64,000 bases of DNA from Minisyncoccota bacterium (GCA_039927695.1 JBDSUM010000007.1:11700-75699), one strand, 5' to 3'; counted from the first letter of the stretch, positions 2,341 through 31,479 are shown. Numbers and translations are program-made. The notes: generated by a model from the letters alone, not told the origin.

Positions 2341-2611
2341 CTATTAATTGATGCCAGACCAGGTGGTGGTGCATAGTCTATGCAAAACGAGCGATTCGTA
2401 GCATGGTCGTGGAGGGCTTAGCAGAACAACCAGACTGCGATATTATGAAGAGGTAATACGGGGCTATGTATTACATCAATATGGCCTAAACCGAGCAATT
2501 GCCCGGCATGGCCGAATAACCGCGACCAGCATAGAAAACCCGTCATCAGGGCGCTGGTCGCGTTATCAGGGGAAACTCTGATATGTCCTTCGGGACTCCT
2601 GGTGGCGGGTT

Positions 2612-3387: not shown

Positions 3388-4878
3388 TTACCAGGAAAGA
3401 TCGCTCCAGTTCATGCTGTAGACACGAGGTACGCTAGGCGGATCTTGAGAGACGCTATGAACGAGGTTTGAGAATGCGTCGGCAAGGTCGTCATGCTTCT
3501 CAACTCCGAAGTGGACTATCTGCTGGATTAACTGCTCAGCTCCTTCTCGAGGGAACACGACTTTTCCGTCTCTGATTGAATTTGCCGTAAGGACAAGACG
3601 ACTTCGCTTATCGGTGGCACCAGGACGGACGGTCTTAACGTTGTGTACGCCTTCTTCCTTCAATTGTTGTGGCAGTGCTTTCTGATACGCTACATCCTCA
3701 ATAATAAAGATAGGGTATCGCTTATCCGATTCGTAGTAACTCTGTTCCAGAATCTTGCACGTATCTACTGTTTCAGGGAAGTTCAGTCGTTTGTTAATGA
3801 TCTTGGGAAGAATATACAACCGATAGCCTCTCTCAAGTTCATAGAGGAGTCCTGGTACCATGGCGGTATAGTCCGCAGTTGCGCTCTTCGAAATCGCTGG
3901 GTCTATACCAATACGCACTTCACGATACGAGGAATAACCGCTTTTGAATCGAATCGGTGGTGGTATCTCGTCGTAGTACTGGATCCATTCGCGGTAAATT
4001 GCTTGGTCGTCGGCTGGGACGATATTCAGCATATATTCGCGCTGCCAGGCGTACTCGTTTCCGGCTCGTCGCTTTTCGTTTTCAATTTCCTCCATATTTG
4101 AGTACTTACCCGGCCATAGGATTTCTCCGTCTTTTGTTACGAGTGGATACTCTTTGAACACGGCGTCGATTGTGTTTTTCTCAACGCGCTCTTTTAAACG
4201 CATAAGAAGCGAATCCTCGTGAAGTAAGTTACCGATAACAACGATACGTGTAGTGCGATCTCCGGTCGGGATAACCTCTCCAGTGAACCATTGGAAGGTC
4301 TTGTCGCGACCTTCGCGCGTCTTCGTGGAAGCGATATCCTCTACGTCGTCTCCAATGATGAGATCAGGGCGATGCTGGTTGTGACGCAAACCACGGATAC
4401 TCTGCTCACTTGAAGCTGCCGTAATGCGTGCGCCGCGCTCGGCAAATACGAGTGAGAACGAACCCCATTCGTCCGCCTCTTCTTTGAATGGCCCTAAATC
4501 ATCCTTCAACATCGAATTATTCTCTAATTCGTTTCGCAAGTTTCGCATATGCTGCTTCGCTTGGCTCTGTGTCTGACAGAGAATCAGCACGAACTTCTTC
4601 TGTTGTTTTCCGAGGATTGCCCAGATAGGATAAGAAGTTGTAATAATTGTAGACTTACTGCTTCCGCGAAACGCGACTACGAACAAGTTTCCGATGTTCT
4701 CGTCTTCAATCAATGAGATCATCTCTGACTGAAACGGAGCAGTCGCGTATTTAACGTAGTGAGCGAAGTAGAAGTGGAAGAAATACCACAGACTATTTTT
4801 AGTGATTGCTATTCGCACTGCTCGATCCTTCATCATCTTCTCTACTAGTTCCGGTGGAAGCATATTTACCTGGTTCAT
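3388..4878 (-). CDS. Phage terminase large subunit
   Basis: Walker A-like FRGSSKST; ATPase + C-terminal RNase H-like nuclease architecture; 496 aa; directly downstream of a small HTH protein. Confidence 0.85.
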   Translation of the reverse strand: MNQVNMLPPELVEKMMKDRAVRIAITKNSLWYFFHFYFAHYVKYATAPFQSEMISLIEDENIGNLFVVAFRGSSKSTIITTSYPIWAILGKQQKKFVLILCQTQSQAKQHMRNLRNELENNSMLKDDLGPFKEEADEWGSFSLVFAERGARITAASSEQSIRGLRHNQHRPDLIIGDDVEDIASTKTREGRDKTFQWFTGEVIPTGDRTTRIVVIGNLLHEDSLLMRLKERVEKNTIDAVFKEYPLVTKDGEILWPGKYSNMEEIENEKRRAGNEYAWQREYMLNIVPADDQAIYREWIQYYDEIPPPIRFKSGYSSYREVRIGIDPAISKSATADYTAMVPGLLYELERGYRLYILPKIINKRLNFPETVDTCKILEQSYYESDKRYPIFIIEDVAYQKALPQQLKEEGVHNVKTVRPGATDKRSRLVLTANSIRDGKVVFPREGAEQLIQQIVHFGVEKHDDLADAFSNLVHSVSQDPPSVPRVYSMNWSDLSW

Positions 4879-5264: not shown

Positions 5265-6538
5265 ACGCGCTTCGCCTTATTGCCCGTCAGCTTCTCGTAT
5301 CGTTTGATGGCGAGGTCGCAGAACACTGGCTCAAGCTCAACCGCATAGACGCGACGTTTCAACTGCTCGGCCGCAATCATGGTGCTACCGGAACCTGAAA
5401 AGCTGTCGAGAATAATGTCGTTTGGTTTTGTGCAACGGCGAATCGCTTTCTCGTGAAGCTTGGGAGGCTTTGACGTTGCGTGTTCGTAGTCCTTGCCGGA
5501 CAAACGCTTAACCATCCACACGTCGAGATGGTCGAGCGTTTCTTCGATTAGATTATTGCCGGTCGTAATTTCCTTATTCAGTACCTCGTTCAGGTTCTGA
5601 ATAGACTTTGTAATATATGGCTTACCGCGCACGCCATAGACGCAAGGTTCGTAGCACTTATTGAATGCAACTGACGGCACGGGATTCTGGGAATTCTTGA
5701 GCCACAGGCAAACGCGCTTGTTCGCGATACCAAGTTCGCGGTACAGCTCCTGCATAAGGCCGATATAGATCTGGTCGCACCAGTAGAAGACGTGAGTATC
5801 AGCCTTTGCAACAGAAAGGGCAGCGATCATGGTTTTGACGATAAACTCCTTGTATTCAGCGTCGGTGCGGTTATCAAGAACGTTCCCACCATAGTTCTTC
5901 TTGCCACCAATACCGCCGTTGTAGTCGATGTTGATGTTATAGGGCGGATCGCTATATATCATGGACGCACGATCATCACCGAAAAGGCGAGTGAGAACGG
6001 CAGGGTCTGTGGAGCTTCCACAGATAAGGCGGTGTTGGCCGAGCTGAATTAAATCACCGACTTTTGTTACAGGCTCTGTTATCTTCTTAAACTCCTTTTC
6101 TTCGTCGAAGTCGTCGTCTTCAGCTTCAAGGTTCTGCGCCCACAGATCGGATAAATCGCTCTCGTCAAAGCCGCTCTCAAGGAGTAGATCAAGGTCAAAA
6201 GATTTAAGCTTCTCAAGATCCCACTCTCCACTTATGGCATTTGAAGAAATTAAATACTGCTCAAACTCTTCTTTTGTGAGCTTGCGGTTAGGTACTCGTA
6301 CATCGATTTCTTCGTCTCCGCGATCAAGTAGCTGTAGGGCTTTGAGTCTTTGATGTCCGGCGACTACAGTATTGTTGGTATCTATTGCCGGGATCTCGAC
6401 AAGGTTAAATTTCTGAAGACTCTTCTTCAGGTCTTGTAATTGCTTATTAGTAAGTTTGCGAGGGTTCGCCTCGTATGGCAGGAGAGAGCTGACTTTACGT
6501 TGCTCTGTGTGCCAGGAAAGTTTTGCGCGTATGGGCAT
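5261..6538 (-). CDS. ParB-like nuclease domain fused to N6-adenine/N4-cytosine DNA methyltransferase (beta class)
   Basis: N-terminal ParB box (VVAGHQRLKA); motif IV SDPPYN precedes motif I FSGSGST (beta-class order); typical phage ParB-MTase fusion. Confidence 0.85.
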   Translation of the reverse strand: MPIRAKLSWHTEQRKVSSLLPYEANPRKLTNKQLQDLKKSLQKFNLVEIPAIDTNNTVVAGHQRLKALQLLDRGDEEIDVRVPNRKLTKEEFEQYLISSNAISGEWDLEKLKSFDLDLLLESGFDESDLSDLWAQNLEAEDDDFDEEKEFKKITEPVTKVGDLIQLGQHRLICGSSTDPAVLTRLFGDDRASMIYSDPPYNINIDYNGGIGGKKNYGGNVLDNRTDAEYKEFIVKTMIAALSVAKADTHVFYWCDQIYIGLMQELYRELGIANKRVCLWLKNSQNPVPSVAFNKCYEPCVYGVRGKPYITKSIQNLNEVLNKEITTGNNLIEETLDHLDVWMVKRLSGKDYEHATSKPPKLHEKAIRRCTKPNDIILDSFSGSGSTMIAAEQLKRRVYAVELEPVFCDLAIKRYEKLTGNKAKRV

Positions 6539-6603
6539 GAAAGCACCATAAACAACTTCGGTGCAGTCTATGTTTCAGATAAAGAGATCCCTTATCTGTA
6601 TAG

Positions 6604-7395
6604 CTATATTTCTCCTAGTCGCTTTCGTGTTCTTGTCACGATTGTACGGATAAGGTTTGTGGTTAATTTCGGCCATTGATTCGCTAATTCTGAATATATG
6701 AACATATCGCTCGCCATCATCGGATCAGTGTGGCGTTTCTTACCATCCATTCTAAACTTTTTGTACTCTGTATATACTTGCAAATCGCGCTCCATATTCC
6801 GCCATGCCTTATTCTTTTCGATGCGATCTTTGAAGAGAAACTCTTGTTCCTTCTTAATCCAGTCCCAATGAGTTTGGAAATCCTCTTTAGTGGTGTGTGG
6901 AAATATCTCTACGAGAAGTTCCCATGTATCGTCTTTCTTTCGGCGCATACTCACCTGAAATGGGGACGTGTATAGCTCCTTTTGCCCAAAAAAGAAGTAC
7001 ATCTCCAAGAAATCCTTGAATGCCGGATTATCCTTCAATCCATAGTGGTTCAGTATTTCTCCAAATACCTGACCGTATATAGGTGGGAGGTATTCTTTAC
7101 GGAAGGATTCTAGCTCGTTGTACTCATCCAAATTGAGCATTTCTTTGCCACAAGTGATCTGCTTAGCACGCTCCTTGAACTCAGAACCATTCTCCATTTC
7201 CCCATACCGCTTCCAGAACCGATCGTTCCACTCTAGGTATTCCGAATACTTCTTGAAAGGCTCCTTAGAAATCGGACAGCCTATTTCTTTGAACCTAACC
7301 TTGAGCCAAGCCTCTTTCTTGAGGAACCACTCGTCTCTCAGTAGGGCAGCTGCTTTGTGGTAGTCCTGGTTATGTATGGTGCGACTTTTGGGCAT
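6604..7395 (-). CDS. Hypothetical protein
   Basis: 263-aa ORF in prophage-like segment; no recognised domain. Confidence 0.45.
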   Translation of the reverse strand: MPKSRTIHNQDYHKAAALLRDEWFLKKEAWLKVRFKEIGCPISKEPFKKYSEYLEWNDRFWKRYGEMENGSEFKERAKQITCGKEMLNLDEYNELESFRKEYLPPIYGQVFGEILNHYGLKDNPAFKDFLEMYFFFGQKELYTSPFQVSMRRKKDDTWELLVEIFPHTTKEDFQTHWDWIKKEQEFLFKDRIEKNKAWRNMERDLQVYTEYKKFRMDGKKRHTDPMMASDMFIYSELANQWPKLTTNLIRTIVTRTRKRLGEI

Positions 7396-7502
7396 ATGGC
7401 TAAGTATAAGACTCTCTTAGAACAAGCTGAAACTTCTTAGCTTCACATATAAACCACCCTTATTCATTATCATTAGACATTATCGGCTAAACAAGCTAAT
7501 AT

Positions 7503-7856
7503 ATGAAAAACAACATGACCTTAGGGACATTTATCAGAGGAAAGAGAGACGAGCTTGATTTATCGCTCACGGAGTTTGCCAAGCTAATTGGTAAAACAGC
7601 TCCGTTTCTATATGACATTGAATTAGATAGACGACATCCATCTGATGAAGTTCTAGATTTGATTGCACAAAACTTAAAGGTATCGCGAGTTGAATTAGAT
7701 AAGCACGATACTCGTCCTCCAACTAAAAATATTAGAACGCAAATACAAGCAGACCCGCAGTACGCTTTTGCATTTAGAAAGACAGCAGATAGTGGCTTAA
7801 GTCCAGCTGAGATAATTGCTGCAATTGAAAAGGCTCAGAAGAGTAAGCGGGGTTAA
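7503..7856 (+). CDS. XRE-family HTH transcriptional regulator
   Basis: HTH_3-like LSLTEFAKLIGKTAPFLYDIE near N-terminus; paired with downstream ImmA-like peptidase. Confidence 0.75.
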   Translation: MKNNMTLGTFIRGKRDELDLSLTEFAKLIGKTAPFLYDIELDRRHPSDEVLDLIAQNLKVSRVELDKHDTRPPTKNIRTQIQADPQYAFAFRKTADSGLSPAEIIAAIEKAQKSKRG

Positions 7857-7864
7857 CAACTTTT

Positions 7865-8557
7865 ATGAAAAATATTCGCGCATTCGAAGGTCCCCATAAA
7901 GATCGGCCTTTTTATGAGAATCACGAGATTGAGCGAATGTGTATTGAAGAGTTGAGTACATACAATCTGCTCCCAGATGAACCGTCGCCAATTCGTATCG
8001 AACGATATATAGAGAAGCGACTCGGCATTACTCCAGCTTACGAAGAGATACCATCTAACATTCTTGGATTCACAAAGTTTGGCACCGCTGGAGCAGAAGC
8101 AATCGTCGTATCACGTTCGCTTCAAGAAGACGGTACTCAATCTTCTGAGCGGCGTGTACGTACGACACTCGCCCATGAAGCTGGGCACGCGTTACTCCAT
8201 GCACATCTTTTTATGAAGCCGACGAGGAAGATGAAAGAACTTTTTGATGACGAACACACAGACATGTCGAAGGTGCTTTGCCGCGACATCGTTGAGAAGA
8301 CCTCTGAAGACGCTCCAAAGTATTCATGGTGGGAATTTCAGGCGAATGCTGCCATGGGTGCACTTCTACTACCCGAGAACCTTTTTCGTACGGCGGCCAA
8401 TCCCTTTTTTGAGTCCACGGGGCTACTCGGCGATACCCCCGTCATCACGCAAGAGGGAAGGGGTGAGCTCGAACGCTCGCTCGCAGACGTATTCGACGTA
8501 AATCCTATCGTCGTACGACATCGTGTCCAGCAGGTGTACTTCCCTAACCGTAAGTAA
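7865..8557 (+). CDS. ImmA/IrrE-family zinc metallopeptidase
   Basis: HEAGHALLH (HExxH) motif in a ~230-aa protein immediately after the XRE regulator. Confidence 0.8.
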   Translation: MKNIRAFEGPHKDRPFYENHEIERMCIEELSTYNLLPDEPSPIRIERYIEKRLGITPAYEEIPSNILGFTKFGTAGAEAIVVSRSLQEDGTQSSERRVRTTLAHEAGHALLHAHLFMKPTRKMKELFDDEHTDMSKVLCRDIVEKTSEDAPKYSWWEFQANAAMGALLLPENLFRTAANPFFESTGLLGDTPVITQEGRGELERSLADVFDVNPIVVRHRVQQVYFPNRK

Positions 8558-8912: not shown

Positions 8913-9797
8913 ATGCATAACGTACCATCGTCGGTTGTCGAACCGCTCCTGCGAGGACCTTCGCCACGAAAGATCACTCAGGTTGCGCAGCTACAGAATG
9001 ATATTCAAACTCTGCTCGGCTCTACACACCATACGTTCCTTCAGGGCTCTTACAAAAATAATACGGCACCATCTGATATCAACGATGTCGATATTGTCGC
9101 TGTACGGCGAACTACGTATAGCGGCGTACATTCACCTCAACGAAACAACCAGCATGATCGTATAGCTTGGGATTCTATATTTTCTGAACTTGAAATACTT
9201 TTAGACGGACATCCAGAGTACGACTGGACTGTAGAGCGTGGAGACAAGTGTATAAAGCTCACTGGTCCGTTTAATGTCGACGTTATTCCCGCGGTCGTCT
9301 ACAGTACTCATGACGAAGATCCAATAGTGGTCTATTCAATGCGTGATGGGCGAGAAATCGTAAATCATCCCCGAACGCACTATGAGAATGGAGTCGAGAA
9401 ACACGCTTCAACAGGAGAGCTCTATAAGCCAACCGTACGTATGTTTAAGAACTGGAAACAGAATCACTACGGACAGGACAAGAGTATGGTCTCATCCTTT
9501 AAGATTGAAGCTTTGGTTAACGCAGTCGACGATGCGGAGTTCGTTGAAGATCCGGTCGCACGATTCATCCTCGTGGGTGCAAGTATCCTCGAGCTTATGA
9601 ACATGCGTTCGTTAGTACCGACGCGTATCATGAGTGTGTGCGGAAATGAGGATATTACTGAGCACTGGGATTTGGGCGCGCGACGTCAGTTCGTCGCTCA
9701 GCTATCCGAATCTGTGAATCACGCACGGCTTGCATTCTCTGCCCCGACAGCAGCGGTTGCTACACAGCATTGGAATAATGCTTTCAACGTCTACTAG
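8913..9797 (+). CDS. Pol-beta-superfamily nucleotidyltransferase, SMODS/CD-NTase-like
   Basis: GS-x9-D-x-D motif (QGSYKNNTAPSDINDVDIV) with downstream acidic residue (FNVDVIP); 294 aa, too large for a minimal MNT; next gene is a 2TM protein. Confidence 0.6.
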   Translation: MHNVPSSVVEPLLRGPSPRKITQVAQLQNDIQTLLGSTHHTFLQGSYKNNTAPSDINDVDIVAVRRTTYSGVHSPQRNNQHDRIAWDSIFSELEILLDGHPEYDWTVERGDKCIKLTGPFNVDVIPAVVYSTHDEDPIVVYSMRDGREIVNHPRTHYENGVEKHASTGELYKPTVRMFKNWKQNHYGQDKSMVSSFKIEALVNAVDDAEFVEDPVARFILVGASILELMNMRSLVPTRIMSVCGNEDITEHWDLGARRQFVAQLSESVNHARLAFSAPTAAVATQHWNNAFNVY

Positions 9798-9798
9798 T

Positions 9799-10422
9799 AT
9801 GAAGAAACATCGCACAACCTATAAGTTTTACTTGTTATTCACGCTAATCACTATTGGCCCCGCAACGTGGGTCGCTGGAAAAGTCGGAGAGATAATGTCT
9901 CTTGCGATCAACTCAAATAATCCACTGCTTGCATGGGGTGTCGTCCAACCACCTACGGTAGTGCTTGTTCTTGGTATATTCTTCCTCATCTACGAACGCT
10001 GGATTTGGAAGACTCCGCCATTCTCATGGATTCACTTCCCGTACCTTGGTGGCCGATATGAAGGCTCAGTAGTATCTAGCTACGATAACGGAGAATATCC
10101 TGTCGTGCTTGAAGTGCGACAGAGCCTACTTACAACCTTGGTTTGTCTCTACACGCCTCGGTCGGCTTCGTATAGCATTACTGCAGATGTCGGCACGAAT
10201 GAAAACGAAAATGAGTCCCTTGCTTACATTTACCGCAATACGCCTCGAACCGTAACCGATAATCTGGATATGACTTCTCATTACGGTATGGCCGTTCTGG
10301 AATATTTTGGCGATACATCTTCGCTCAAAGGTTTCTACTTCAATGACCCAAGGGATCGCGGCCGTCACGGCACTCTTGAGTGTAAGCGTGTTAGTCGTCA
10401 ACGTAAGAAGCGTTTTGAGTAA
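9799..10422 (+). CDS. Two-TM effector-like protein (SLATT-like architecture)
   Basis: ATG 1 nt after the NTase stop; two TM helices then ~110-aa soluble tail; the 9730 start in the ORF track overlaps the NTase and is rejected. Confidence 0.45.
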   Translation: MKKHRTTYKFYLLFTLITIGPATWVAGKVGEIMSLAINSNNPLLAWGVVQPPTVVLVLGIFFLIYERWIWKTPPFSWIHFPYLGGRYEGSVVSSYDNGEYPVVLEVRQSLLTTLVCLYTPRSASYSITADVGTNENENESLAYIYRNTPRTVTDNLDMTSHYGMAVLEYFGDTSSLKGFYFNDPRDRGRHGTLECKRVSRQRKKRFE

Positions 10423-10949: not shown

Positions 10950-12449
10950 CTAAGCAGGGCTTGATTCTATACGGTTCGAACTCGAGACGGCCAGCAAAGT
11001 TTCAAAATCAGCATTTTTAGGTGTTAGTGCGAGTAGGTTGTATGGGCTTTTGAATTGTATCTGCGCCATATTTCCATTTTCAATGGTCATGTTCGAAAGT
11101 AGTTTTTGAAGCATTTCTCGCTTTTCTACATCATCAACAAGCAAATACTTTTCTGCGGCTCTACTGCCTTCTATAAACACGTTTTGTATTTGTTCGAAAG
11201 TTACAGCGGCTACTCCATTTTTTGATTCAATTTCGTCTATTTGTTTCTGAAGTTCAACTCGTTTATTAGCTATCTCCTGCATCTTTTCTTGAAAGAGTTC
11301 TTTGCGGATTAAGCCAGAGCCAAAGCCATCAGTGAGACGAGATTCTGCTTCGGAAAGGGAAGCAAGTTCTTTGTTTAAGTTCTCTCGAGCAGAAGCGACA
11401 TAGTCAGTCTTTGTTTGGTAGCGAGTTTTGTATGCTTCACCGCAAATGGAAATAAGCTCCTCATCAAATTTAAGTTCAAGGAACATTTTTGAAAGGAGGG
11501 TATCTATTGCTTCAGAGCGTATGTATTTCTTTTTTTGATCACAACCCTGTTTACCGTTCGTACAATAGTAATACTGATGCCCACGCTGAGTATCGGCAGT
11601 AATGGCGCAACCACAGGATTCGCACCGAAGGTATCCTCGAGCAGAGTAGAAATTTCTTTTAGGCCGTGGGTGCTTACGAGCATGGAGGATGTCATCACAT
11701 GTATTAAAGAGCGAAACTGAAACGATAGCTTTATGTTTCCCAGGGTATACAACGCCATCTCGCTCCATGAGTCCGCAATAGAACTTATTTATAAAGAAGC
11801 GATGTATCTGATTCTTGAATACCTTTCCTCCCGTACGAGTTCGAAGACCTTCCTCATACAAGACCTCTACGATTTGTTGAAGCGTGTAGCCACCAGTCGC
11901 ATAGAGATTAAAAGCACGTACTACATACGGAGATAATTTCTTATCAATTTTGATACTCTTAGTTGCTTTATCATTTAGATATCCAAATGGTGCATGATTC
12001 GGCCATTCTCCCCGAGCTAACTTTTCTCGATTACCACGCTTCACTAGTTCGCTTAGATCACGAACGTACTGCGTAGCCATTGCTTGTTCAATACTCATGA
12101 GAAGAACATTGTCAGAAGGACTATAGTTCCGATCAAAAGTGCGGATGTTCTTTATGTTCCCATTCTGTAGAAGCCATTGAATTTGTCCGCCATCTACAGG
12201 GTTGCGAGTAAGGCGATCAACTTTCCAGCATAGAATAGCATCAGCTTTTCCTTTAGAAATATCTTTAAGCATTTGGTTAAAGATAGGGCGACCAGGTTCT
12301 TTAGCAGAACGACTTTCTCGAAGAGTGGAGACAATTTCTAATCCTTCTCGTTTAGCAACACCAATAAGTTCACGTTCTTGAGATTCAAGCGAAAGAACCT
12401 GCTTGTCTTCAGTATCAGTAGACTTACGGCAATAGAGGATGTACTTCAT
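10950..12449 (-). CDS. Large serine recombinase
   Basis: YCRKSTDTEDKQ catalytic Ser motif; recombinase domain; zinc ribbon CESCGC...YYYCTNGKQGC; coiled-coil C-terminus; 499 aa. Confidence 0.9.
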   Translation of the reverse strand: MKYILYCRKSTDTEDKQVLSLESQERELIGVAKREGLEIVSTLRESRSAKEPGRPIFNQMLKDISKGKADAILCWKVDRLTRNPVDGGQIQWLLQNGNIKNIRTFDRNYSPSDNVLLMSIEQAMATQYVRDLSELVKRGNREKLARGEWPNHAPFGYLNDKATKSIKIDKKLSPYVVRAFNLYATGGYTLQQIVEVLYEEGLRTRTGGKVFKNQIHRFFINKFYCGLMERDGVVYPGKHKAIVSVSLFNTCDDILHARKHPRPKRNFYSARGYLRCESCGCAITADTQRGHQYYYCTNGKQGCDQKKKYIRSEAIDTLLSKMFLELKFDEELISICGEAYKTRYQTKTDYVASARENLNKELASLSEAESRLTDGFGSGLIRKELFQEKMQEIANKRVELQKQIDEIESKNGVAAVTFEQIQNVFIEGSRAAEKYLLVDDVEKREMLQKLLSNMTIENGNMAQIQFKSPYNLLALTPKNADFETLLAVSSSNRIESSPA

Positions 12450-13228
12450 GGTGAGAGAATGTCTTCAAGAGGGTCGTAGTCGGGCTTAGGCAAAATGTAC
12501 GTCTTCTTAGTCATATTGCCAAGAAAGTCATGTTTCGTTTCCCATTCTTTTACAGGTTCACGTTCTAAGAACGCATACTTAAGCTGTTCAGCATGTTCTC
12601 CGCGAATAATCGTTTCTTTAGGGAACCCGTGCGATATACGAAGGAGTCTCATAGCAGTAAACATTATTTCTCCACCGCATTTGGTGAGGTATTTGGCCAG
12701 ATAACCTGCCAGTGCTGGAGAACCGTCAGTTTGGAGGACATCAACGAAACCCTCTCCCCAAAGGGTAGCCAAGGTTCTCGTTTGGCGTTCCGTCCCGTCT
12801 TGAAGTCGGCGTTTACCTTGGCGCGTATCTCCGAGATGCAATGGCACGTTAAAGAGAAGCCCATGAAAGTGGATTCGACCTCGAGGGGAGAGTTCAGGAA
12901 TAAAGAGGGATTGCGCACCAGGAAATTTACGGCGCAACCGCACTTGGAAGTCGCGTAGGGAATCGTTTGCGTATGAAGCATCGGAAGCGTCTCCAGCGAA
13001 GGTGAAGGTAGCCAGGAGCGGCACCCCAAATAGCGCAATGCCAGCATGCACCCTCCGCACACATATTTGTGCGGTTCGGCGAAGATTATCGGATCGCCTA
13101 GGTTGGTGTACAAAATCCCTCTCTCGAGGACGACGTAGCCGTACTTTGGGGGCAGGCGTTTTCTCGAATTCAGTGATTTCAACGACTTGACCATATTTCT
13201 TGAAGACAACGGGCATGTTTAAAATCAC
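12446..13228 (-). CDS. Rolling-circle replication initiator (HUH endonuclease, two-Tyr superfamily I)
   Basis: Motif 1 ATFTFAG; motif 2 HFHGLLF (HUH); motif 3 GYLAKYLTK (Y-x-x-K-Y as in phiX174 gpA / Microviridae VP4 / pC194 Rep); stop overlaps the recombinase start. Confidence 0.65.
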   Translation of the reverse strand: MILNMPVVFKKYGQVVEITEFEKTPAPKVRLRRPRERDFVHQPRRSDNLRRTAQICVRRVHAGIALFGVPLLATFTFAGDASDASYANDSLRDFQVRLRRKFPGAQSLFIPELSPRGRIHFHGLLFNVPLHLGDTRQGKRRLQDGTERQTRTLATLWGEGFVDVLQTDGSPALAGYLAKYLTKCGGEIMFTAMRLLRISHGFPKETIIRGEHAEQLKYAFLEREPVKEWETKHDFLGNMTKKTYILPKPDYDPLEDILSP

Positions 13229-13464
13229 TAACTGTGAGGGGATATCAAGTCAGGCGCTGGCGCGCCTGCCCCCTCGTCGCTTAAGCGAGCGTCGGTGTCA
13301 GGCGCAACCCCGCGCTCCCCACAAGCCGCAAAAACCGCCATGGACGAATAGAGTTCAGCAAATTGACCCAGATACTCATCTGCGGTCTCATCGCTAATCT
13401 CAAGCCCCAGACGGGCTGAGAAGTAGCGCTTAGTTCGATCAATTAAATGCTCGGTAAATTCCAT
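13228..13464 (-). CDS. Small hypothetical protein upstream of Rep in a GC-rich patch
   Basis: 78-aa ORF overlapping the Rep start by 1 nt; local GC clearly above surroundings. Confidence 0.3.
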   Translation of the reverse strand: MEFTEHLIDRTKRYFSARLGLEISDETADEYLGQFAELYSSMAVFAACGERGVAPDTDARLSDEGAGAPAPDLISPHS

Positions 13465-13800
13465 AGTGGTTTGAATGGGCGCAGTGGTGGAACTCCTCAG
13501 GAAATAGAAAACGCCCTTTTGGGGCGTAATGAATGCCTGTATTTTCGACCTAAAAGCAAAAAGCCGGCTGGTTGCCGGGCTACTCCTATATTTTTATATG
13601 CTTATTGTTGTGGTTTTTATTAGATTTCTTCTTAATTTGAATGTTTTGTTGGGTTTATTTTATTTATCTGTGCTTCCTACCAGCATATAACCAGTGCCCA
13701 AATCAAAAGGTTGCACCCCCGTGTGGTGTAATTTGACGAATAATTCGATAATACACAACTCACTCTCTTCGAAGATTAATATATGCTACGGTGAAAAGAA

Positions 13801-14208
13801 ATGAAGATTCCCCGCAGTACGATTATTGTCACACTACTAATACTTATAATTTCTTGTTATGTCCTTTACGAATTCCATTCGTGGATTTCTGGAATAGAAA
13901 ATAATCCCTCATCTGTTTCAGCCGAAGAACTTGTCTCTTATGTGTCAATCAAGGAACTAAAAACACAAATAGCTCTCGATAAATACCGAACAGAAGAAGG
14001 TGCCTATCCGAAGACATTAGCGGAACTTATACCAAGATATTTAAAAGAAATTTCCAATACTCCTGTTAAAGAAGTAAACGTATCGTATGAAAGAGTAAGC
14101 ACTACTTCATATAAGCTTTGTATGAAGCTCTCCACAGGCAGTGTCTCTTGTGGTAGCGAAAGTGCTACTATGGAAGGAAAGACTTTTAATAGCTATTCAA
14201 ATCCATGA
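13801..14208 (+). CDS. Membrane-anchored protein with GspG/pseudopilin-like C-terminal region
   Basis: N-terminal TM; QIALDKYRTEEGAYPKTLAELIPRYL resembles the conserved T2SS pseudopilin segment; no canonical prepilin cleavage motif. Confidence 0.35.
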   Translation: MKIPRSTIIVTLLILIISCYVLYEFHSWISGIENNPSSVSAEELVSYVSIKELKTQIALDKYRTEEGAYPKTLAELIPRYLKEISNTPVKEVNVSYERVSTTSYKLCMKLSTGSVSCGSESATMEGKTFNSYSNP

Positions 14209-14738
14209 AAGAATCAAGCACTTCACTCAGATTGTTCTTTGGAGCAATCGCAGTTTTATATCTCATATCATTTGGTTTCTTCAGTCTTGCTATGAGCTTT
14301 ATCGGACTCGGTGGGGAATATCTTTTCGGATCTGTGAGCGCAATAATGGGCTTTCTGGTAGGTATAATAGAAGCGATTATTTTGCTTTATTTCGCCATTA
14401 CTCTTCCCAAATACCTAAATGCAGAAAAGGTTAAATATGTGAAATGGTTCCTAATAATTTCCTTCTTGCTTGCGCTTATACCAGGAATTAGTAGTTGGGT
14501 CATGAGCCAAACAGCACCCAATATAATCAGTATTGTAGTTAGTGCGCTTGTGACCTGGTACCTATTTCATAATGTCTCCCGCCTTTCTCGGCCTGTGCCA
14601 GTAAGCGAGCCAGTGCCCGCGCAGATGGGCCCGCAGCCAACAGGCATAAAGAAAAGAATTTCTGGTGGTACGGCTTTTATTATTATCTTGGCGGTCATCG
14701 CTGTTGCAGTTATTGGGTTAATTTTTGCAGGGCAATAG
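14205..14738 (+). CDS. Polytopic membrane protein
   Basis: At least 4 hydrophobic helices; overlaps the previous stop (operon). Confidence 0.5.
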   Translation: MKESSTSLRLFFGAIAVLYLISFGFFSLAMSFIGLGGEYLFGSVSAIMGFLVGIIEAIILLYFAITLPKYLNAEKVKYVKWFLIISFLLALIPGISSWVMSQTAPNIISIVVSALVTWYLFHNVSRLSRPVPVSEPVPAQMGPQPTGIKKRISGGTAFIIILAVIAVAVIGLIFAGQ

Positions 14739-14759
14739 TTATGTTGCTGGAATCAGTAC

Positions 14760-15176
14760 CTATTTATTAAAGAGTTTCCAAAACGGTTGAGCATCAATCC
14801 ATTTTTGAGTCTCGAAATCAATATCATCTAAGTAGGACTCATTACTACTACACGATTCCCAAGAAAACATAGTAGATCGCGTATATACATTTCTTACCCA
14901 ATAGTGGCCTAGATTACTACATAGAATATTTTGATAACACGAAACTGCAATCAATATTAATGCAAGACCAATAGATGTAAAAAGCACTGATTTTAATTTA
15001 GAGAACTTCTTTTTATTCAGGTAAGCGTACAGCGAGGAGAAAATTCCAAATGCCAGAATTATTGGCCACCATTTTGCAAAATATGTTGTAGAGCCTGGCG
15101 CGCTAATGAATACAATAGCAAGAATTACTAAAAGAACTCCCGGAAGCGCTTTTAGAGGAATTTTGACCGTTTCCAT
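14760..15176 (-). CDS. Membrane protein
   Basis: 3 TM helices; convergent with the preceding genes. Confidence 0.45.
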   Translation of the reverse strand: METVKIPLKALPGVLLVILAIVFISAPGSTTYFAKWWPIILAFGIFSSLYAYLNKKKFSKLKSVLFTSIGLALILIAVSCYQNILCSNLGHYWVRNVYTRSTMFSWESCSSNESYLDDIDFETQKWIDAQPFWKLFNK

Positions 15177-15235
15177 CTAAACAATATAGCGCATCATTAT
15201 CTCAGATTTTAACTTCAATGAACAACCTACTTAAA

Positions 15236-15263
15236 TTTGTTCGAATATCGTCCCAGACGGTGC
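15236..15263 (+). repeat. Conserved intergenic repeat, copy 1
   Basis: tttgttcgaatatcgtcccagacggtgc. Confidence 0.8.
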
Positions 15264-15355
15264 TATGGTGGTGACCGCCACGCTGTTCGTCTCATATTTT
15301 AAATTCAAAAAGTGGGTATAAGAAAGCTCCACTCACACTTCTAAAAGTGATAAAT

Positions 15356-15381
15356 TAGTTCGGATATTGTCCTGGACGATC
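15356..15381 (+). repeat. Conserved intergenic repeat, copy 2 (diverged)
   Basis: tagttcggatattgtcctggacgatc; dyad kept as GTCC-TG-GAC. Confidence 0.6.
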
Positions 15382-15471
15382 TTGAATTGACTTATTCTGT
15401 ATTTAATATATAAAGTAATAGGAATTTAACCTGGTTCTTTGATAGAACCATAGCTGAGAAAGGAACCTCAA

Positions 15472-16539
15472 ATGCCCAGAATATGGACCGCTGAGGCCGT
15501 TGTCTCAGCGATTAAAACACTTCAAGATAATGGAGAGGCTCTTGATCTAACCTCAATCAACCAAGCTCACCGAAATCTACTTTGGGCTGCTACGAAATAT
15601 CATGGTACCTGGAGAAAGGCTGTTGAGGCATGTGGGATTGAATATTCATCAGTCTCACGAATTGCAATTGATCGCCAGTCCTGGGATAAGGAAAAGATAA
15701 TTGCGACACTGAAGAGTTTGTACGAACAGGGTCTTCCCTTGAATTCCAATTACGTACAGACAAAGCAACAACGTCTCTTTGGTGCTGCAACTAAATATTT
15801 CGGTGGTTGGCCTCAAACAGTGGAAGCTGCTGGTCTGAATTATGACAGGTTGCGAAAGGTAAAACTGCGCAACTGGTCCATAGAAGTAATCATTGAAGCA
15901 GTCATACATAGAGCACACTCCGAGAAATCGATAAGTGGGGCTGTTGTCTATGAAGAAGATAGAGGTCTATATCAAGCAGCTAAAAGACACTTGGGTAAAG
16001 GTGGTTGGGCTAAGGCACGAGTACTTGCAGGTTTCGCTCCAATCGATCCAGATCCCAAAAGGAAATGGACTGAAAAGAGTGTGACTGAAGAGATTCAGCG
16101 TCTTCATGCAAATGGAGTACAGCTTTACACCCAAGCCCTACAACGGAGCGAATTCAGTTATATTCTTGCAGCTGGTCGGAAAGTATTCGGAACATGGGCA
16201 TGCGCAATTGAACGCGCTAGCTTAAATTACGCTGAAATTCGAAAGGGCCGCAAGAACTTCTGGACACGTGAAGAAGTACTCCGAGGAATTAAAGGTCTTG
16301 AGGCGCAAGGTGTCCGCCTTAGTTTAAAGGAAGTAAGAGTTGGTCGTAGTGGTCTTATTGCAGCTGCGATAAAGTATTTCGGTTGCTGGAGTCAAGCGGT
16401 GGAAGCCGCAGGAATTCAGTACCGTTTACATTGCCAGACCTGGTCAACAAAAGCATGGCTGCGTCGCATGCATGTAGATGAATACAACGCGACTCTTGAA
16501 ACTTCACGAACACTTGCTAAGAAAAGGAGAATGCAATGA
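15472..16539 (+). CDS. Tandem-repeat protein (homing-endonuclease-associated-type ~50-aa repeats, no nuclease domain)
   Basis: Five repeats with core a.KYfGsW..AvEaAGi.Y (ATKYHGTWRKAVEACGIEY, ATKYFGGWPQTVEAAGLNY, AIKYFGCWSQAVEAAGIQY and two more). Confidence 0.5.
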   Translation: MPRIWTAEAVVSAIKTLQDNGEALDLTSINQAHRNLLWAATKYHGTWRKAVEACGIEYSSVSRIAIDRQSWDKEKIIATLKSLYEQGLPLNSNYVQTKQQRLFGAATKYFGGWPQTVEAAGLNYDRLRKVKLRNWSIEVIIEAVIHRAHSEKSISGAVVYEEDRGLYQAAKRHLGKGGWAKARVLAGFAPIDPDPKRKWTEKSVTEEIQRLHANGVQLYTQALQRSEFSYILAAGRKVFGTWACAIERASLNYAEIRKGRKNFWTREEVLRGIKGLEAQGVRLSLKEVRVGRSGLIAAAIKYFGCWSQAVEAAGIQYRLHCQTWSTKAWLRRMHVDEYNATLETSRTLAKKRRMQ

Positions 16540-17582
16540 GTATTTCAGCTATCACTAAGCACGGGTTCAAGTTGATTCCGGTTGCTGATATCCAAGAAAC
16601 TGTGGTGCAACTTCGCACCCATTATGCCAATGAGCCTCTTCAAGAACTGGGCAATTCTCTCGAAGATGATGGACTACTTCAGCCCATTGTCGTTGCCCCT
16701 GGTGATGAATTCAAATTCGAACTCATTATCGGCTCACGCCGTCTTCGGGCAGCACGTCATAAGGGTATGGAAGAAATTCCAGCCCTCGTGATTGAGGAGA
16801 CCAGTCCTCTGAATTATCTGCTGATTGCACTCGGCGAGAACCTTCATCGAGAAGACCTGAATCCATTTGAGGAGGCACACGCGTTCCTCCGTCTTATGAA
16901 GGATTACGGGCTTGGTGTGCAGGAAGTAGCCGTAAGAACGCATAAGGGCGAAGCGTTCGTTCGGAAGCGGATGGAATTGCTCAGTATGCCTGAGAATGTT
17001 CAGGCAATGATTGCTGAGAAGAAACTCGCCCTCCACTTCGTCCAAGCACTTGCTCGTTTGCCTACGGGTGAACAACAAGTGTATTACGCGCAGAAAGCTC
17101 TCTCTGAGGGTCTGTCAATCAGCGAGCTTCGGCAGTTGATTACAAGTGACGCGGGCGAGATGGCACCAAGAACAAAGCGGGATTTCTCCGCTGATAAAGT
17201 TCGTGTTCGTATCGATATGTTCGCTCGCTGGATGAAGCGACTCTCGGCGAACAGTGCCTTCAACAGAAGCCTCAATGCAGAAGAACGGGCTGCACTCGCG
17301 CGATCTGTCCAATCTCTGGATGGAGAGCTACGTGTTGCTCGTTCGGTGTTTGGCGAGTGGGTAGGTCGCACACCTGTGCGCTCGATCCCCAATCTGAGCA
17401 ATATCGTTGATGATCCCGATAACCATGGTGACCAGTGGTCACTGCGGCATATCGAAATGATTACCGCCAACGATCGCCCTTCTGACGATATGCTTGCAAC
17501 CAAGCTCGGCAGAAGTGTTGCTGCTATTCGTGGTATGCGATCCAAGATGCAAAGAGAAAGGAAGGATCGAAAAACCGGGTAA
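16536..17582 (+). CDS. ParB-like N-terminal domain protein
   Basis: ParB box LQPIVVAPGDEFKFELIIGSRRLRAARHKG; start overlaps the previous stop (ATGA). Confidence 0.75.
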   Translation: MSISAITKHGFKLIPVADIQETVVQLRTHYANEPLQELGNSLEDDGLLQPIVVAPGDEFKFELIIGSRRLRAARHKGMEEIPALVIEETSPLNYLLIALGENLHREDLNPFEEAHAFLRLMKDYGLGVQEVAVRTHKGEAFVRKRMELLSMPENVQAMIAEKKLALHFVQALARLPTGEQQVYYAQKALSEGLSISELRQLITSDAGEMAPRTKRDFSADKVRVRIDMFARWMKRLSANSAFNRSLNAEERAALARSVQSLDGELRVARSVFGEWVGRTPVRSIPNLSNIVDDPDNHGDQWSLRHIEMITANDRPSDDMLATKLGRSVAAIRGMRSKMQRERKDRKTG

Positions 17583-17606
17583 TACCGGAATATCGATCTC
17601 AACCTT

Positions 17607-17638
17607 AGACCCCTCCAAAAAGAGGGGTCTATTTTTTA
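17607..17638 (+). terminator. Rho-independent terminator after the ParB-like gene
   Basis: agacccctc-caaaaa-gaggggtct perfect 9-bp stem followed by attttttat. Confidence 0.8.
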
Positions 17639-17642
17639 TATA

Positions 17643-18224
17643 TTGTGTTATCCTGTTTACAGACAAGACATCAAGAGCATAGAGGTGCAAAGGGTTCTGG
17701 CCCAATACTCTATCCGCAACCTGCCTATAATCGGTAAGGTGCGAATTCCAGCCCGTAAGGGAAGATGTAACCAACCGAACAGACGGCCATCTCCCGGAGG
17801 TGGTCTTTTGTCCTTTATAAGGAGAAGTATCGTGACTGGTCATATTAAAATTATTGATCTGGAAAATGACCTTATTCCCGAGCTGGGAAATAAGAAAGAT
17901 ACCTTTCGTTCCAAGCAGGTATTTCGTTGCCCAGTATGTACATCGCTAACGAACAATATTGAAATTCGTGGCGGTTTTAAAGGTTGGCGCGCAAGCCCAT
18001 TTCCTATATGTCCGCATAGGGAACAGGAATGGCACGTCTTACTTAGAGTAAAGATTCGGCTTTCAGACCCTGCTCATCCCGTTTCTTACAGAAAGGAGCT
18101 TGAAGTTGAAATTGATTCATTAAGGTTAAACGCCAAGGATGATATATCGGGATCAGCAGATCTTTCATGTGAGAGGAAATTTCCCGCTACAAAGCTCATC
18201 ATAGAAGATAGAGGATATGACTAG
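17643..18224 (+). CDS. Hypothetical protein with Cys/His cluster (CPVC...CPH); likely shorter than the ORF
   Basis: ORF between two rho-independent terminators; possible Zn-binding residues; start uncertain (GTG near 17826 possible). Confidence 0.3.
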   Translation: MCYPVYRQDIKSIEVQRVLAQYSIRNLPIIGKVRIPARKGRCNQPNRRPSPGGGLLSFIRRSIVTGHIKIIDLENDLIPELGNKKDTFRSKQVFRCPVCTSLTNNIEIRGGFKGWRASPFPICPHREQEWHVLLRVKIRLSDPAHPVSYRKELEVEIDSLRLNAKDDISGSADLSCERKFPATKLIIEDRGYD

Positions 18225-18226
18225 TA

Positions 18227-18256
18227 CAAGGGGGTCAATTGACCCCCTTGTTTATT
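18227..18256 (+). terminator. Rho-independent terminator (perfect palindrome)
   Basis: caagggggtcaattgacccccttg followed by tttatt. Confidence 0.7.
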
Positions 18257-18270
18257 AATAGATAGCTAGA

Positions 18271-18300
18271 TTTGTTCGAATATCGTCCCAGACGGCCAGC
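18271..18300 (+). repeat. Conserved intergenic repeat, copy 3 (consensus-like)
   Basis: tttgttcgaatatcgtcccagacggccagc. Confidence 0.85.
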
Positions 18301-19255: not shown

Positions 19256-20941
19256 ATGAAACGAAAACCCCAAGTCATTGATTTCTTTTGTGGTGCCGGA
19301 GGCTTCTCCGAAGGCTTTCGTCAGCAAGGGTTTGAAGTCGTTATGGGTATCGATAATTGGTTGCCGGCAATAGAGACACACAACCTTAATCACAATCTTA
19401 ATGACAAGGTTAGAGACGTGCTCGAATTTGGCAACTCGCTTGAAGAAATAAATTCGCTGCCCGATACAGAGGTTATCGTGGGAAGTCCTCCTTGCGTGCT
19501 TTTCTCTCTCTCTAACAAAGGAGGTAAAGCTGATAAGACACTCGGTATTCGATTGATCGAATCCTATCTGCGTGTAATCGCTATAAAAAAGCACCAGCCA
19601 TCGTCGCAACTAAAGGCATGGTTTATGGAGAATGTTCCGAACTCTAGGAACTATATTCGTCCCACCTATACATTTAGCGAGCTGGATCTGACTGAATGGG
19701 CAAGAAATCACGGTTTTGATCCTAATCAGATTGCTCTGAACGGCTCATCAAACGGAATCGTATTAAATACAGCTGAATTTGGTGTCTCTCAAAAACGAGA
19801 ACGTTTTGTGTGTGGTGAGATCATCTCTACGGGCAAGTTCCCGAACCTAGAAAAATTTATGAGCAAGACGTATCGCAGCATTGGAGAGGTAAAAGGAAAG
19901 ATGCCTGCGCCTAATTTGCCGCTATCAAATAAATTATTTTCTGACCCTAATTATCCTTCCACATCTTTTAAGATGAAGGATATGACTGATCATTTCTATG
20001 ATTCAGGTATATATGAAATCCAGTGGAGGAATGCTCAATATCTAAAGGTAAATCATCCCTTCATGGGAAAGATGTCCTTTCCTGAAGACGAGAAGAACCC
20101 GAGCCGTACTATCATGGCAACCCGTTCAATGACCACACGAGAATCTCTAATATACAAATCAGAATATAGTCGACGAGGAGATGGGGAATACAGATTACCT
20201 ACTATACGCGAGATAGCAACTCTCATGGGTTTTCCATACTCGTATCAATTCTCAGGAGCGGAGAATACAAAATGGAGACAGGTTGGTAATGCCGTTTGTC
20301 CTCCTATGAGTTCAGCTCTTGCCAAGAGCGTAAGACTATCTATTGGATTAAGTGTAATTCCCGTTTCAAAAATTACCTTCAATTCTCTTAAGGGTAAGCT
20401 AGACAGGATTCAGAACATAAATACTTTCTCTGAAAAGAAATTTAATGATCCGCCAAAAAGGAAACTAAATGCGCGTTTCCGAAGGCATCCTTTTAAGGAT
20501 GGTAATATGACGGTTGCTTTAACGAACTTTAATCCGGTATCTCCAATCGATTCTCCTGAAGTCACAGAGTGGTATTCATCTGTATTCATGGGCTCTGGTA
20601 AAGACTTTACTATTAAAATTCTCACTAAGAGTCAATTCAAAGAAATTGCTAAATTTATTGAAGTAAATAATAAGGACTTGAGTACAAAATTTACTCAGGA
20701 ATTTAATGAAAAGTTTAAAGCTGTTATTGGTAATACTCACAAGTTTCAAGAAGCCTACGTGTTAGAAAACTCTCGCTTGCCTCATGAGCCTGGACGTTTG
20801 GTAGATGAAATTAGTGACTTCATACGCGCGTTTGATTCAACGGAAAAACACATGCAAATTCCAGATTTTCTTCCAGGAAAGAATCTGTTACCTATCCGAC
20901 AAGTCCTCGCCATGTACGCTCTCAATAGACTTGTGTCGTAA
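19256..20941 (+). CDS. DNA (cytosine-5)-methyltransferase
   Basis: Motif I FFCGAGGFSEGF; motif IV GSPPCVLFS (PC); motif VI ENV (WFMENVPN); motif VIII QKRERF; long C-terminal target-recognition region. Confidence 0.9.
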   Translation: MKRKPQVIDFFCGAGGFSEGFRQQGFEVVMGIDNWLPAIETHNLNHNLNDKVRDVLEFGNSLEEINSLPDTEVIVGSPPCVLFSLSNKGGKADKTLGIRLIESYLRVIAIKKHQPSSQLKAWFMENVPNSRNYIRPTYTFSELDLTEWARNHGFDPNQIALNGSSNGIVLNTAEFGVSQKRERFVCGEIISTGKFPNLEKFMSKTYRSIGEVKGKMPAPNLPLSNKLFSDPNYPSTSFKMKDMTDHFYDSGIYEIQWRNAQYLKVNHPFMGKMSFPEDEKNPSRTIMATRSMTTRESLIYKSEYSRRGDGEYRLPTIREIATLMGFPYSYQFSGAENTKWRQVGNAVCPPMSSALAKSVRLSIGLSVIPVSKITFNSLKGKLDRIQNINTFSEKKFNDPPKRKLNARFRRHPFKDGNMTVALTNFNPVSPIDSPEVTEWYSSVFMGSGKDFTIKILTKSQFKEIAKFIEVNNKDLSTKFTQEFNEKFKAVIGNTHKFQEAYVLENSRLPHEPGRLVDEISDFIRAFDSTEKHMQIPDFLPGKNLLPIRQVLAMYALNRLVS

Positions 20942-20985
20942 TTGACAAAAGGCTCAAATGCAGGGAATATGATGATTAAGACTGC

Positions 20986-22413: not shown

Positions 22414-22425
22414 TAATGAATATTC

Positions 22426-25888: not shown

Positions 25889-25955
25889 TCCGAGACGGGT
25901 CAAATTCAGAAGATAAAATTCGCTCAGAAAGCCTTGTGGGGCTTGGCGGGAGAAA

Positions 25956-31478: not shown

Positions 31479-31479
31479 T

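Follow-up and report, generated by a model that had tools for sequence, protein, structure and literature searches.

A Rep and serine-recombinase gene pair of Patescibacteria and a probable family of small integrative rolling-circle plasmids

What kind of element places a rolling-circle replication gene directly beside a large serine recombinase gene in a patescibacterial genome? The question is raised by 64,000 nt of DNA from a Minisyncoccota bacterium (GCA_039927695.1 JBDSUM010000007.1:11700-75699; hereafter the window, with positions counted from its first nucleotide). Its minus strand carries three successive open reading frames (ORFs), i.e. one of 78 amino acids (aa; 13464-13228), one of 260 aa as mechanically called (13228-12446) and one of 499 aa (12449-10950). 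All three exist as a preliminary description had listed them. That description proposed an element that replicates by rolling circle through its replication initiator (Rep) and integrates by a serine recombinase, and our results support this by synteny, tRNA junctions, attachment-site geometry, one circular relative and a nick motif. We consider it likely that the family to which the gene pair belongs consists of small (∼4–7 kb) integrative rolling-circle plasmids of Patescibacteria. The family is real and apparently undescribed so far, although integrative rolling-circle replicons are already known as a kind.

The middle gene encodes a two-tyrosine HUH rolling-circle initiator. Profile searches match the protein to PF23343 (REP_ORF2-G2P, HUH fold) at 43.2 bits, well above the gathering cut-off of 27.8, and it has the HUH nuclease fold; weak matches were obtained to RepSA and to the PHROG rolling-circle initiator families, together with weak similarity to Microviridae VP4 and inovirus-like initiators. 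Motif 1 (TFTF/TLTF), the HUH motif (HFHGL) and motif 3 (YLAKYLTK, with two tyrosines in Y172-x-x-K175-Y176) are present as first described, and residues T72, H116, H118, Y172, K175 and Y176 are invariant in an alignment of 21 sequences (the window protein and 20 homologues). Loss of the HUH or tyrosine residues among homologues, which would speak against the assignment, is not seen in this alignment. Because the homologues all begin with MP(V/I), we place the start of rep at the ATG at 13216 and not at the GTG at 13228, which gives a gene of 256 aa (12446-13216, minus strand). The small ORF therefore does not overlap the start of rep, contrary to the preliminary description; its stop codon and the true ATG are separated by a gap of 11 nt.

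The downstream gene (10950-12449, minus strand) encodes a large serine recombinase (LSR), i.e. an integrase, of 499 aa. It contains PF00239 Resolvase (1.1e-20, residues 4-149) and PF07508 Recombinase (6e-12, 46 bits) domains and has the nucleophilic-serine motif Y-C-R8-K-S10-T at its N-terminus. Over its full length it matches the phrog_95 integrase (1e-80), and it also matches the SPbeta SprA and TP901-1 serine integrases. The LSR start shares the sequence ATGA with the rep stop, an overlap that had been noted before, and the gene layout indicates that the LSR is translationally coupled to Rep within one operon. On the other side of rep, the small ORF (13228-13464, minus strand, 78 aa, stop codon 13230-13228) has no match in family-profile searches and is found in 24 of 32 loci. 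Its residues 1–46 are conserved among 15 homologues and make up a two-helix N-terminal half (predicted helices 5–19 and 25–48, pLDDT > 94), followed by a disordered, Gly/Ala/Pro-rich C-terminal tail, the coding sequence of which coincides with the origin hairpin and nick block described below. The small ORF is a candidate for a regulator or a recombination directionality factor.

Related loci were collected via exact proteins (5 loci), from species-representative genomes, which are named patescibacterial metagenome-assembled genomes (MAGs; 26 loci), and from metagenomes (44 loci). The exact-protein and species-genome loci form a first set, and the metagenome loci form a second, independent set. 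These ∼70 related Rep/LSR loci are all from the ultra-small Patescibacteria, in which the element is common, and 26 of ∼185,000 species genomes matched the search patterns. Close Rep homologues number 289 (∼244 aa, 58–96% identical); their named sources are Parcubacteria, Paceibacteria, Harrisonbacteria and similar groups, and some lie on contigs of up to 825 kb. PF23343 is carried by all 120 Rep homologues listed, and clustering at 50% resolves the tight Rep family into ∼30 representatives within a wider set of 2,116. A MAG of Candidatus Paceibacterota, the lineage from which the window derives, encodes a protein with 100% identity to the window's small ORF.

The LSR follows Rep in all fetched loci, while the neighbouring genes vary. 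The ATGA overlap recurs in 21 of 27 loci of the first set and in 20 of 35 of the second. Pairwise divergences of Rep and LSR are correlated (Spearman rho 0.60), so that both genes travel together. Nucleotide homology between the window and locus L001, its closest relative (Rep 96% identical), is limited to 11006-13736, so that the conserved core is ∼2.75 kb long and consists of leader, small ORF, rep and LSR. Variable cargo of 1.5–4.4 kb lies upstream of this core. Integrated elements are 4.2–6.8 kb long and consist, in order, of a P-type (attP-arm-type) attachment site, cargo, leader, small ORF, rep, LSR and a tRNA gene.

The element usually sits beside a tRNA gene. In ∼40 of 50 loci with enough flank, an antisense tRNA gene meets the LSR gene, 3' end against 3' end. 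Within the first set, the antisense tRNA lies 2173–2283 nt from the Rep start in ∼20 loci; within the second, 20 of the 25 loci that have enough flank show it, with 19 placed at +2158 to +2283 and one at +2704. Target tRNAs are those for Gln (CTG, TTG), Trp, Lys (CTT, TTT), Leu (TAA, GAG), Gly, Ser (CGA, GGA), Tyr and Asn, which amounts to at least 12 tRNA species by anticodon and eight amino acids. Direct repeats of the tRNA of at least 11 nt were absent from the far end in four loci, and a mismatch-tolerant search locates a far site 2.0–4.6 kb upstream of rep, in which 8–18 nt identical to the tRNA 3' end precede a conserved motif. The two junctions agree over 4–18 nt, in keeping with the short crossover and the lack of long flanking repeats expected of a serine integrase.

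We then compared the far sites with the tRNA genes. In tRNA sense, the far sites read GTTCCAAC-ATCGT-CCCAC followed by the acceptor strand, the discriminator and C. These P-type sites resemble a tRNA's 3' third that is longer by five bases, placed between a T-loop-like motif and a T-stem-like part. On the tRNA-side arm, which is the arm covered by this comparison, 20 of 21 tRNAs span 22 nt and 20 of 21 P-type sites span 27 nt, measured from the G of GTTCNA to the end of the site. For serine integrases, it is established that attP has its zinc-ribbon-domain motif 5 bp further from the centre than attB does (Rutherford et al. 2013, PMC3783163). By its spacing, the 5-nt shift between tRNAs and P-type sites is the attP/attB geometry of serine integrases. 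Three loci without a tRNA (L006, L012 and L018) carry a P-type site directly at the LSR end, as expected of an unintegrated attP, and the L012 site is the far site of the integrated relative L009 bar one base. Comparison of flanks with those of relatives, as suggested at the outset, yields both tRNA 3'-end junctions and attP/attB-type sites. The crossover may be placed either within the last ∼8 nt of the tRNA (with an AGACGG core ∼8 nt inside) or at the tRNA 3' boundary. Since the LSR gene spans the junction, its last 4–67 codons differ between element states; the C-terminal tail of the LSR is antisense to the tRNA when the element is integrated and encoded by the P arm when it is free.

In the window, the corresponding sites all lie on the plus strand. 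Site C (10974-10995), a tRNA-Gln-like 3' fragment that reads GTTCGAAC-TCGAG-ACGGCCA-GC, has the 22-nt tRNA-type (attB-type) spacing and forms an attR-like junction. It is antisense within the last LSR codons, exactly where relatives carry a full tRNA 3' end, and the last ∼15 codons of the LSR cross it into flanking DNA (layout GTTCGAAC-TCG-AGACGG-CCAGC, then the LSR end). The acceptor-like part of site C fits the 3' end of tRNA-Gln; L001, with whose LSR the window LSR clusters, sits in tRNA-Gln(CTG). Site B (15239-15265) is a P-type pseudo-tRNA site with the sequence GTTCGAATATCGTCCCAGACGG (layout GTTCGAATATCGTCCC-AGACGG-TGC) and is likely the attL-like far end. Site A (18274-18300) is a second P-type site, GTTCGAATATCGTCCCAGACGGCCAGC (27 nt; layout GTTCGAATATCGTCCC-AGACGG-CCAGC), and ends in the same tRNA-Gln-like 3' end as site C. 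Sites A and B have an identical 31-nt P arm, the 6-nt core AGACGG is common to B and C, and A and C share AGACGGCCAGCAAA. Between C and B lies a unit of 4.3 kb with LSR, rep, origin, small ORF, leader and three membrane-protein genes, all intact. The predicted attP junction of this unit would join ∼15265 to ∼10985, with GTTCGAATATCGTCCCAGACGG directly followed by CCAGCAAAGTTTCAAAATC, and the predicted empty site would read GGTTCGAACTCGAGACGG directly followed by TGCTATGG within the flanking DNA.

A free form of the element is suggested by one relative. The Rep of L006 is found on at least 15 contigs (samples ERZ273210xx, SRR322773xx). The 11 examined (L006 and L032-L041) are SPAdes contigs of 5,751 nt, whose ends repeat 55 nt, or Logan contigs of 5,726 nt, whose ends repeat 30 nt. 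After rotation, all 11 represent one 5,696-nt unit with zero mismatches, despite differing break points and two assemblers, and the unit was assembled at ∼20× coverage. It contains the small ORF, rep, the LSR with an attP-type site at its end, a Shedu-like SduA_C nuclease and a 526-aa protein without a Pfam match. A free circular molecule is the simplest reading of these contigs.

A candidate replication origin lies just upstream of rep, in the stretch that encodes the tail of the small ORF. It consists of an invariant block, CTGAC-TTGATA-TCCCCTCACAGTT (13230-13253, minus strand), which contains the nick-site core CTTGATA and is unique within the window, and of a GC-rich imperfect hairpin (13254-13315, minus strand), a candidate double-strand origin that had earlier been called a GC-rich leader. 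The GC-rich patch placed at 13.2–13.5 kb in the preliminary description is real but narrower, because 13254-13330 has 74% GC against 43.6% for the window and coincides with the richest 100-nt stretch of the 64 kb. It is not a sign of foreign origin, as had been proposed, because the hairpin is family-wide and encodes the Gly/Ala/Pro linker of the small ORF.

Conservation of this region was traced across the family. The block CTGAC-TTGATA-TCCCCTCAYAGTTGTAA lies 20–50 nt 5' of the Rep ATG in 30 of 30 loci, in any reading frame of the small ORF, and recurs in 36 of 41 further loci; the invariant CTGACTTGATATCCCCTCA block near rep is preceded by a hairpin. Because it persists where the small ORF is absent or ends earlier, the constraint acts on the DNA and not on the encoded peptide PDLISPHS. 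A GC-rich hairpin stands directly 5' of the block in all 28 loci examined (median −33 kcal/mol, median z −2.7), and the sequences of its stem are unrelated between loci. In the window, 13228-13315 folds as single-stranded DNA (ssDNA) with −23.9 kcal/mol (z −3.1; 0 of 200 shuffles equally stable). A search for a nick-site hairpin, which had been recommended, leads to the CTTGATA block and the GC-rich hairpin directly upstream of rep.

Rep is predicted to nick the minus strand between G13246 and A13245, i.e. CTTG/ATA. The predicted target is CTGACTTGATATCCCC, with the cut at G/A between CTGACTTG and ATATCCCCTCA. The motif ACTTGATAT also agrees with the phiX174 origin, in which gene A protein cleaves between G and A. 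In the small plasmids pHT926 and pGTG5, ACTTGAT-TATAG lies 44–85 nt 5' of rep. CTTGATA is the conserved nick site of the double-strand origin of pC194/Rep_1-type plasmids (PMC10378824). Further upstream, the non-coding leader (13465-13740, minus strand) is shared with L001 and marks the upstream limit of the conserved core. Two terminator-like hairpins (13564-13578 and 13511-13527) lie in it just before the small ORF, and an Rfam search of the rep leader gave no match, including none to the LOOT RNA discussed below.

Taken together, these features suggest the following cycle. The LSR would recombine attP with a tRNA gene of the chromosome at the 3' end of that gene, and the tRNA would be kept intact; attP overlaps the 3' end of the LSR gene and imitates the 3' portion of a tRNA. 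The LSR, probably with a directionality factor, would excise the element as a circle. Rep would then nick this circle at CTTG/ATA beside the GC-rich hairpin and copy it by rolling-circle replication. The sequences themselves show the gene identities, the conserved synteny and coupling, the tRNA association, the attachment-site geometry, the circularly assembling relative, and the conserved nick motif with its hairpin; we infer the nicking, replication, integration and excision activities and the exact crossover. Relatives of Rep are the sole replication gene of plasmids of 1.5–1.8 kb.

Several observations weigh against this cycle, either in the family or in the window copy. Only one relative was found as a circle, for which a tandem repeat could give the same assembly, and the second locus set contains no circular locus. 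The zinc ribbon of the LSR scores 24.6 bits, slightly under the Pfam cut-off of 25.3. No single-strand origin was identified, and the leader folds like its shuffles (z −0.3). The LSRs do not cluster by target tRNA, contrary to expectation: their median identity is 0.48 when the target is shared and 0.49 when it is not. At the window copy, site B diverges from site A past AGACGG; no tRNA body was found upstream of site C by Infernal (E ≤ 10), by default and relaxed ARAGORN or in Rfam; and a degenerate pattern for the window P' arm, a match to which could have revealed a free circle or a copy in an intact tRNA, gave 0 matches in public metagenome and viral (IMG/VR) contigs. The window copy abuts only a tRNA-Gln-like fragment, within an island of mobile and defence genes, and its present mobility is therefore uncertain; we are less confident that this copy is active than we are of the nature of the family. 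Relaxed ARAGORN hits over the whole window were dismissed, as default ARAGORN and Rfam give no tRNA anywhere in it.

The rep gene appears to hold a second coding sequence. In its +1 frame, the window contains a hidden ORF of 176 aa (12664-13194, minus strand), which is Cys-rich, has no Pfam or other family match and is a candidate overprinted gene. The +1 frame is open for 157–190 codons, from about nt 1 to nt 550, in 53 of 53 distinct rep genes, with an ATG no more than 25 nt from the start of the open frame in 52 of them. By comparison, the +2 frame has a median of 38 codons, shuffles of synonymous rep codons seldom attain the observed +1 length, and no frame of the LSR shows a comparably long open stretch. 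Identity at four-fold sites is 0.58 inside the overlap against 0.30 outside (p = 2e-5). The overlapping ORF accounts for the far higher conservation of Rep (median identity 66% across orders) than of the LSR (49%). It is, like the small ORF, a candidate recombination directionality factor, and as a candidate overprinted gene it is a clean case. The rep genes of pHT926 and pGTG5 do not contain the long +1 ORF. A distant VP4 homologue in a Microviridae sp. (L044, MG945510, 298-772) has an open +1 frame of 158 codons, which is a single case.

Other explanations of the gene pair have to be weighed against that of an integrative rolling-circle plasmid. It might be an integrative mobilizable element (IME), whose Rep would act chiefly as a relaxase that nicks an origin of transfer, with the strand exported by a secretion or pilus system of the host or of another element. 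Streptococcal IMEs indeed combine an integrase with a pHT926/PHA00330-type initiator, which has been read as a non-canonical relaxase (PMC5357655), and pC194-type Reps are able to support mobilisation of the integrative and conjugative element ICEBs1 (PMC5714925). The window Rep is distantly homologous to the pHT926 Rep, and type IV secretion system (T4SS) pilin genes lie near L004 and L005. These pilin genes are, however, outside the element, beyond the tRNA, and both the window unit and the 5.7-kb circle lack a coupling protein (TcpA/VirD4) and any transfer gene. Homologous Reps serve the 1.5–1.8 kb plasmids as the only replication gene, and a free circle at ∼20× fits replication, although the relaxase and replication roles are compatible. 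We therefore regard a mainly relaxase function as unlikely. Much less probable still is an integrated ssDNA phage (inovirus- or microvirus-like), or a satellite of one, to which the LSR would give lysogeny as in Ralstonia phiRSM1. PF23343 is named for inovirus G2P and plectrovirus ORF2, Rep weakly matches Microviridae VP4 and inovirus-like initiators, the window cargo consists of three small membrane proteins, and phiRSM1 integrates at the 3' end of a gene for tRNA-Ser by a serine recombinase (PMC3218068). Pfam and PHROG scans of the unit and of the 5.7-kb circle nevertheless recognise no capsid, coat, Zot-like ATPase or lysis gene, the cargo varies by copy (in the circle it is the Shedu-like nuclease and the 526-aa protein), and the IMG/VR pattern scan for the window arm is without a match. 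Judged from this gene content, from which capsid and morphogenesis genes are absent, an integrated ssDNA phage is not what the element is.

Two readings dispense with an integrative replicon altogether. A rolling-circle transposon of the IS91 or Helitron type, in which Rep would be the transposase and the LSR would only resolve or stabilise the products, is highly improbable: the insertion point is fixed relative to the LSR gene and not to rep, the attachment sites have serine-integrase geometry, Rep has ∼245 aa and neither a helicase nor a zinc-finger domain, the nick motif is internal beside rep and not at an element end, and no multi-copy spread within a genome was seen. The unusual conservation of Rep (median 66% across orders) and the location of copies on large chromosomal contigs could instead be taken to mean that Rep and LSR are a fixed, domesticated and immobile gene pair with a host function. 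This we find hardly credible, given that flanking genes vary between loci, at least 12 tRNA species are targeted, a free 5.7-kb circle exists, the patterns matched only 26 of ∼185,000 species genomes, and the overlapping +1 ORF accounts for how conserved Rep is.

As an integrative rolling-circle plasmid, the element can be compared with several known systems. The early likening to the integrative and conjugative elements of actinomycetes (AICEs) or to an integrated ssDNA phage holds for AICE-like integration and replication, but not for transfer, capsid or morphogenesis genes, which are missing. AICEs such as pSAM2 likewise combine an integrase with a phiX174/pC194-like Rep in a small element within a tRNA 3' end and replicate after excision, and some use a serine recombinase (PMC3218068). 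By contrast, the unit and the circle contain no FtsK/SpoIIIE-like Tra or other transfer gene, Rep belongs to PF23343 and not to RepSA, the elements are roughly half as large, Rep and LSR are translationally coupled and the hosts are Patescibacteria. The element is thus AICE-like for integration and replication and, because it has no transfer gene, not a member of the AICEs. With phiRSM1 it shares a rolling-circle replicon, integration by a serine recombinase at a tRNA 3' end and, by Pfam name, the Rep family of inovirus G2P. It differs in having no virion or morphogenesis genes, an LSR of ∼500 aa with a recombinase domain and a borderline zinc ribbon, and cargo of defence or membrane type. Such a pairing of a rolling-circle replicon with serine-recombinase integration into tRNA genes, as in phiRSM1, has been described as rare (PMC3218068).

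Streptococcal IMEs resemble the element in pairing an integrase with a small HUH initiator of the same broad family, in their compactness, in their location at the 3' ends of conserved genes and in tandem accretion (PMC5357655). They use tyrosine integrases and mostly carry TcpA, with a minority lacking a coupling protein (PMC5357655), whereas here the integrase is a serine recombinase, a coupling protein is absent and a circle was assembled. The plasmids pHT926 (1,786 bp) and pGTG5 (1,540 bp) of Bacillota have a homologous Rep (24% identity over >90% of the length) and the ACTTGAT motif upstream of it, but no integrase, attachment site or long +1 ORF. Phage LSRs (A118/LI, Bxb1, phiC31 and SPbeta SprA) share the domain set (with the zinc ribbon borderline here), the 5-bp attP shift and the lack of long direct repeats; they differ from the present LSRs, which target tRNA 3' ends, have an attP arm that imitates the T-arm and acceptor strand and are encoded by a gene that crosses the attachment site. 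A full-text literature search of incomplete coverage found no description of the Rep/LSR family or of such plasmids in Patescibacteria.

Plasmids and integrative elements of Patescibacteria, the candidate phyla radiation (CPR), are nearly undescribed. A replicon of 4–7 kb with an origin, an initiator and a tRNA-directed integrase is a part list for genetic tools in these largely unculturable and intractable bacteria. The family also extends the range of serine integrases by a set whose attachment sites mimic tRNAs; such integration into tRNA genes has been reported as rare (PMC3218068). Finally, it points to one route by which defence genes move among very small genomes.

Such movement may involve more than single elements. 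Two or three nearly identical P-type sites per locus, which bound recombinase-less cassettes of 0.4–3.5 kb, are found in L018 (8274/8988/12488), L023 (785/1677/2266), L011 (1446/2761/3185), L010 (2787/3254), L024 (2048/3870) and the window (15239 and 18274). The repeated sites may reflect tandem accretion or cassettes mobilised in trans; a P' remnant, which would be expected at the flanks of the recombinase-less cassettes, was not seen there. The 3.0-kb cassette of the window, from B to A (15266-18273), has no recombinase of its own and encodes an HNH-repeat protein (15472-16539), a ParB-like protein (16536-17582) and a 193-aa ORF (17643-18224). On the near side of site B, the variable cargo of the unit (13741-15238) encodes three small predicted membrane proteins (13801-14208 and 14205-14738 on the plus strand, 14760-15176 on the minus strand), which have no confident family and are not common to L001, whose cargo is different. 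We tentatively suggest, as a rather doubtful possibility, that Rep/LSR elements act as drivers that, with recombinase-less cassettes each headed by the same pseudo-tRNA attP-type site, build integron-like arrays of defence genes with LOOT RNA beside tRNA genes, and that the overprinted rep ORF is needed for the life cycle. The genes in such arrays would include the Shedu-like nuclease, DUF2726 and DUF559 nucleases, and perhaps the neighbouring CBASS-like pair of the window.

LOOT (RF03000), so far an orphan small RNA, gains a genomic home by these data. It lies inside Rep/LSR elements at six loci (L002 7368-7482, L008 5552-5660, L014 4619-4735, L020 4967-5084, L028 4582-4701 and L031 3450-3574), usually antisense to rep. 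There and in the window, it is found directly 5' of a gene on the same strand (DUF2726 twice, DUF559 once and four without a family). LOOT was also considered as the single-strand origin, which we judge unlikely from its position on the strand opposite the nick motif. Cargo of L002 at 5435-8000 comprises a 319-aa reverse transcriptase (RVT_1), a DUF559 endonuclease-like gene and the LOOT RNA. In the window, LOOT (2483-2597, plus strand) runs antisense to a second serine recombinase, at a distance of ∼450 bp upstream.

An island of mobile and defence genes takes up the window's first 34 kb, with three serine recombinases, a SMODS/Cap15 pair, a helix-turn-helix (HTH)/M78 pair, several methyltransferases, SNF2 and superfamily 1 (SF1) helicases, GmrSD and DUF2130. 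The three large serine recombinases lie on the same strand within 30 kb (714-2033, 10950-12449 and 28788-30110, all minus); the outer two (439 and 440 aa) lack a Rep partner, and neither 3' end shows a recognisable tRNA-like site. ORFs at 2612-3331 and 3388-4878 have no Pfam match. Beside the element, an HTH_3/M78-peptidase pair occupies 7503-8557 (plus strand), and at 8913-10422 (plus strand) a Cap15-type effector comes after a weak SMODS-like nucleotidyltransferase, forming a defence pair that resembles cyclic-oligonucleotide-based antiphage signalling systems (CBASS). On the far side, 19256-33866 carries successive genes of restriction or defence type, for a C5 methyltransferase, an SNF2 helicase, NOV_C, an SF1 helicase, an EcoRI-type adenine methyltransferase, a GmrSD-N/HNH nuclease and DUF2130.

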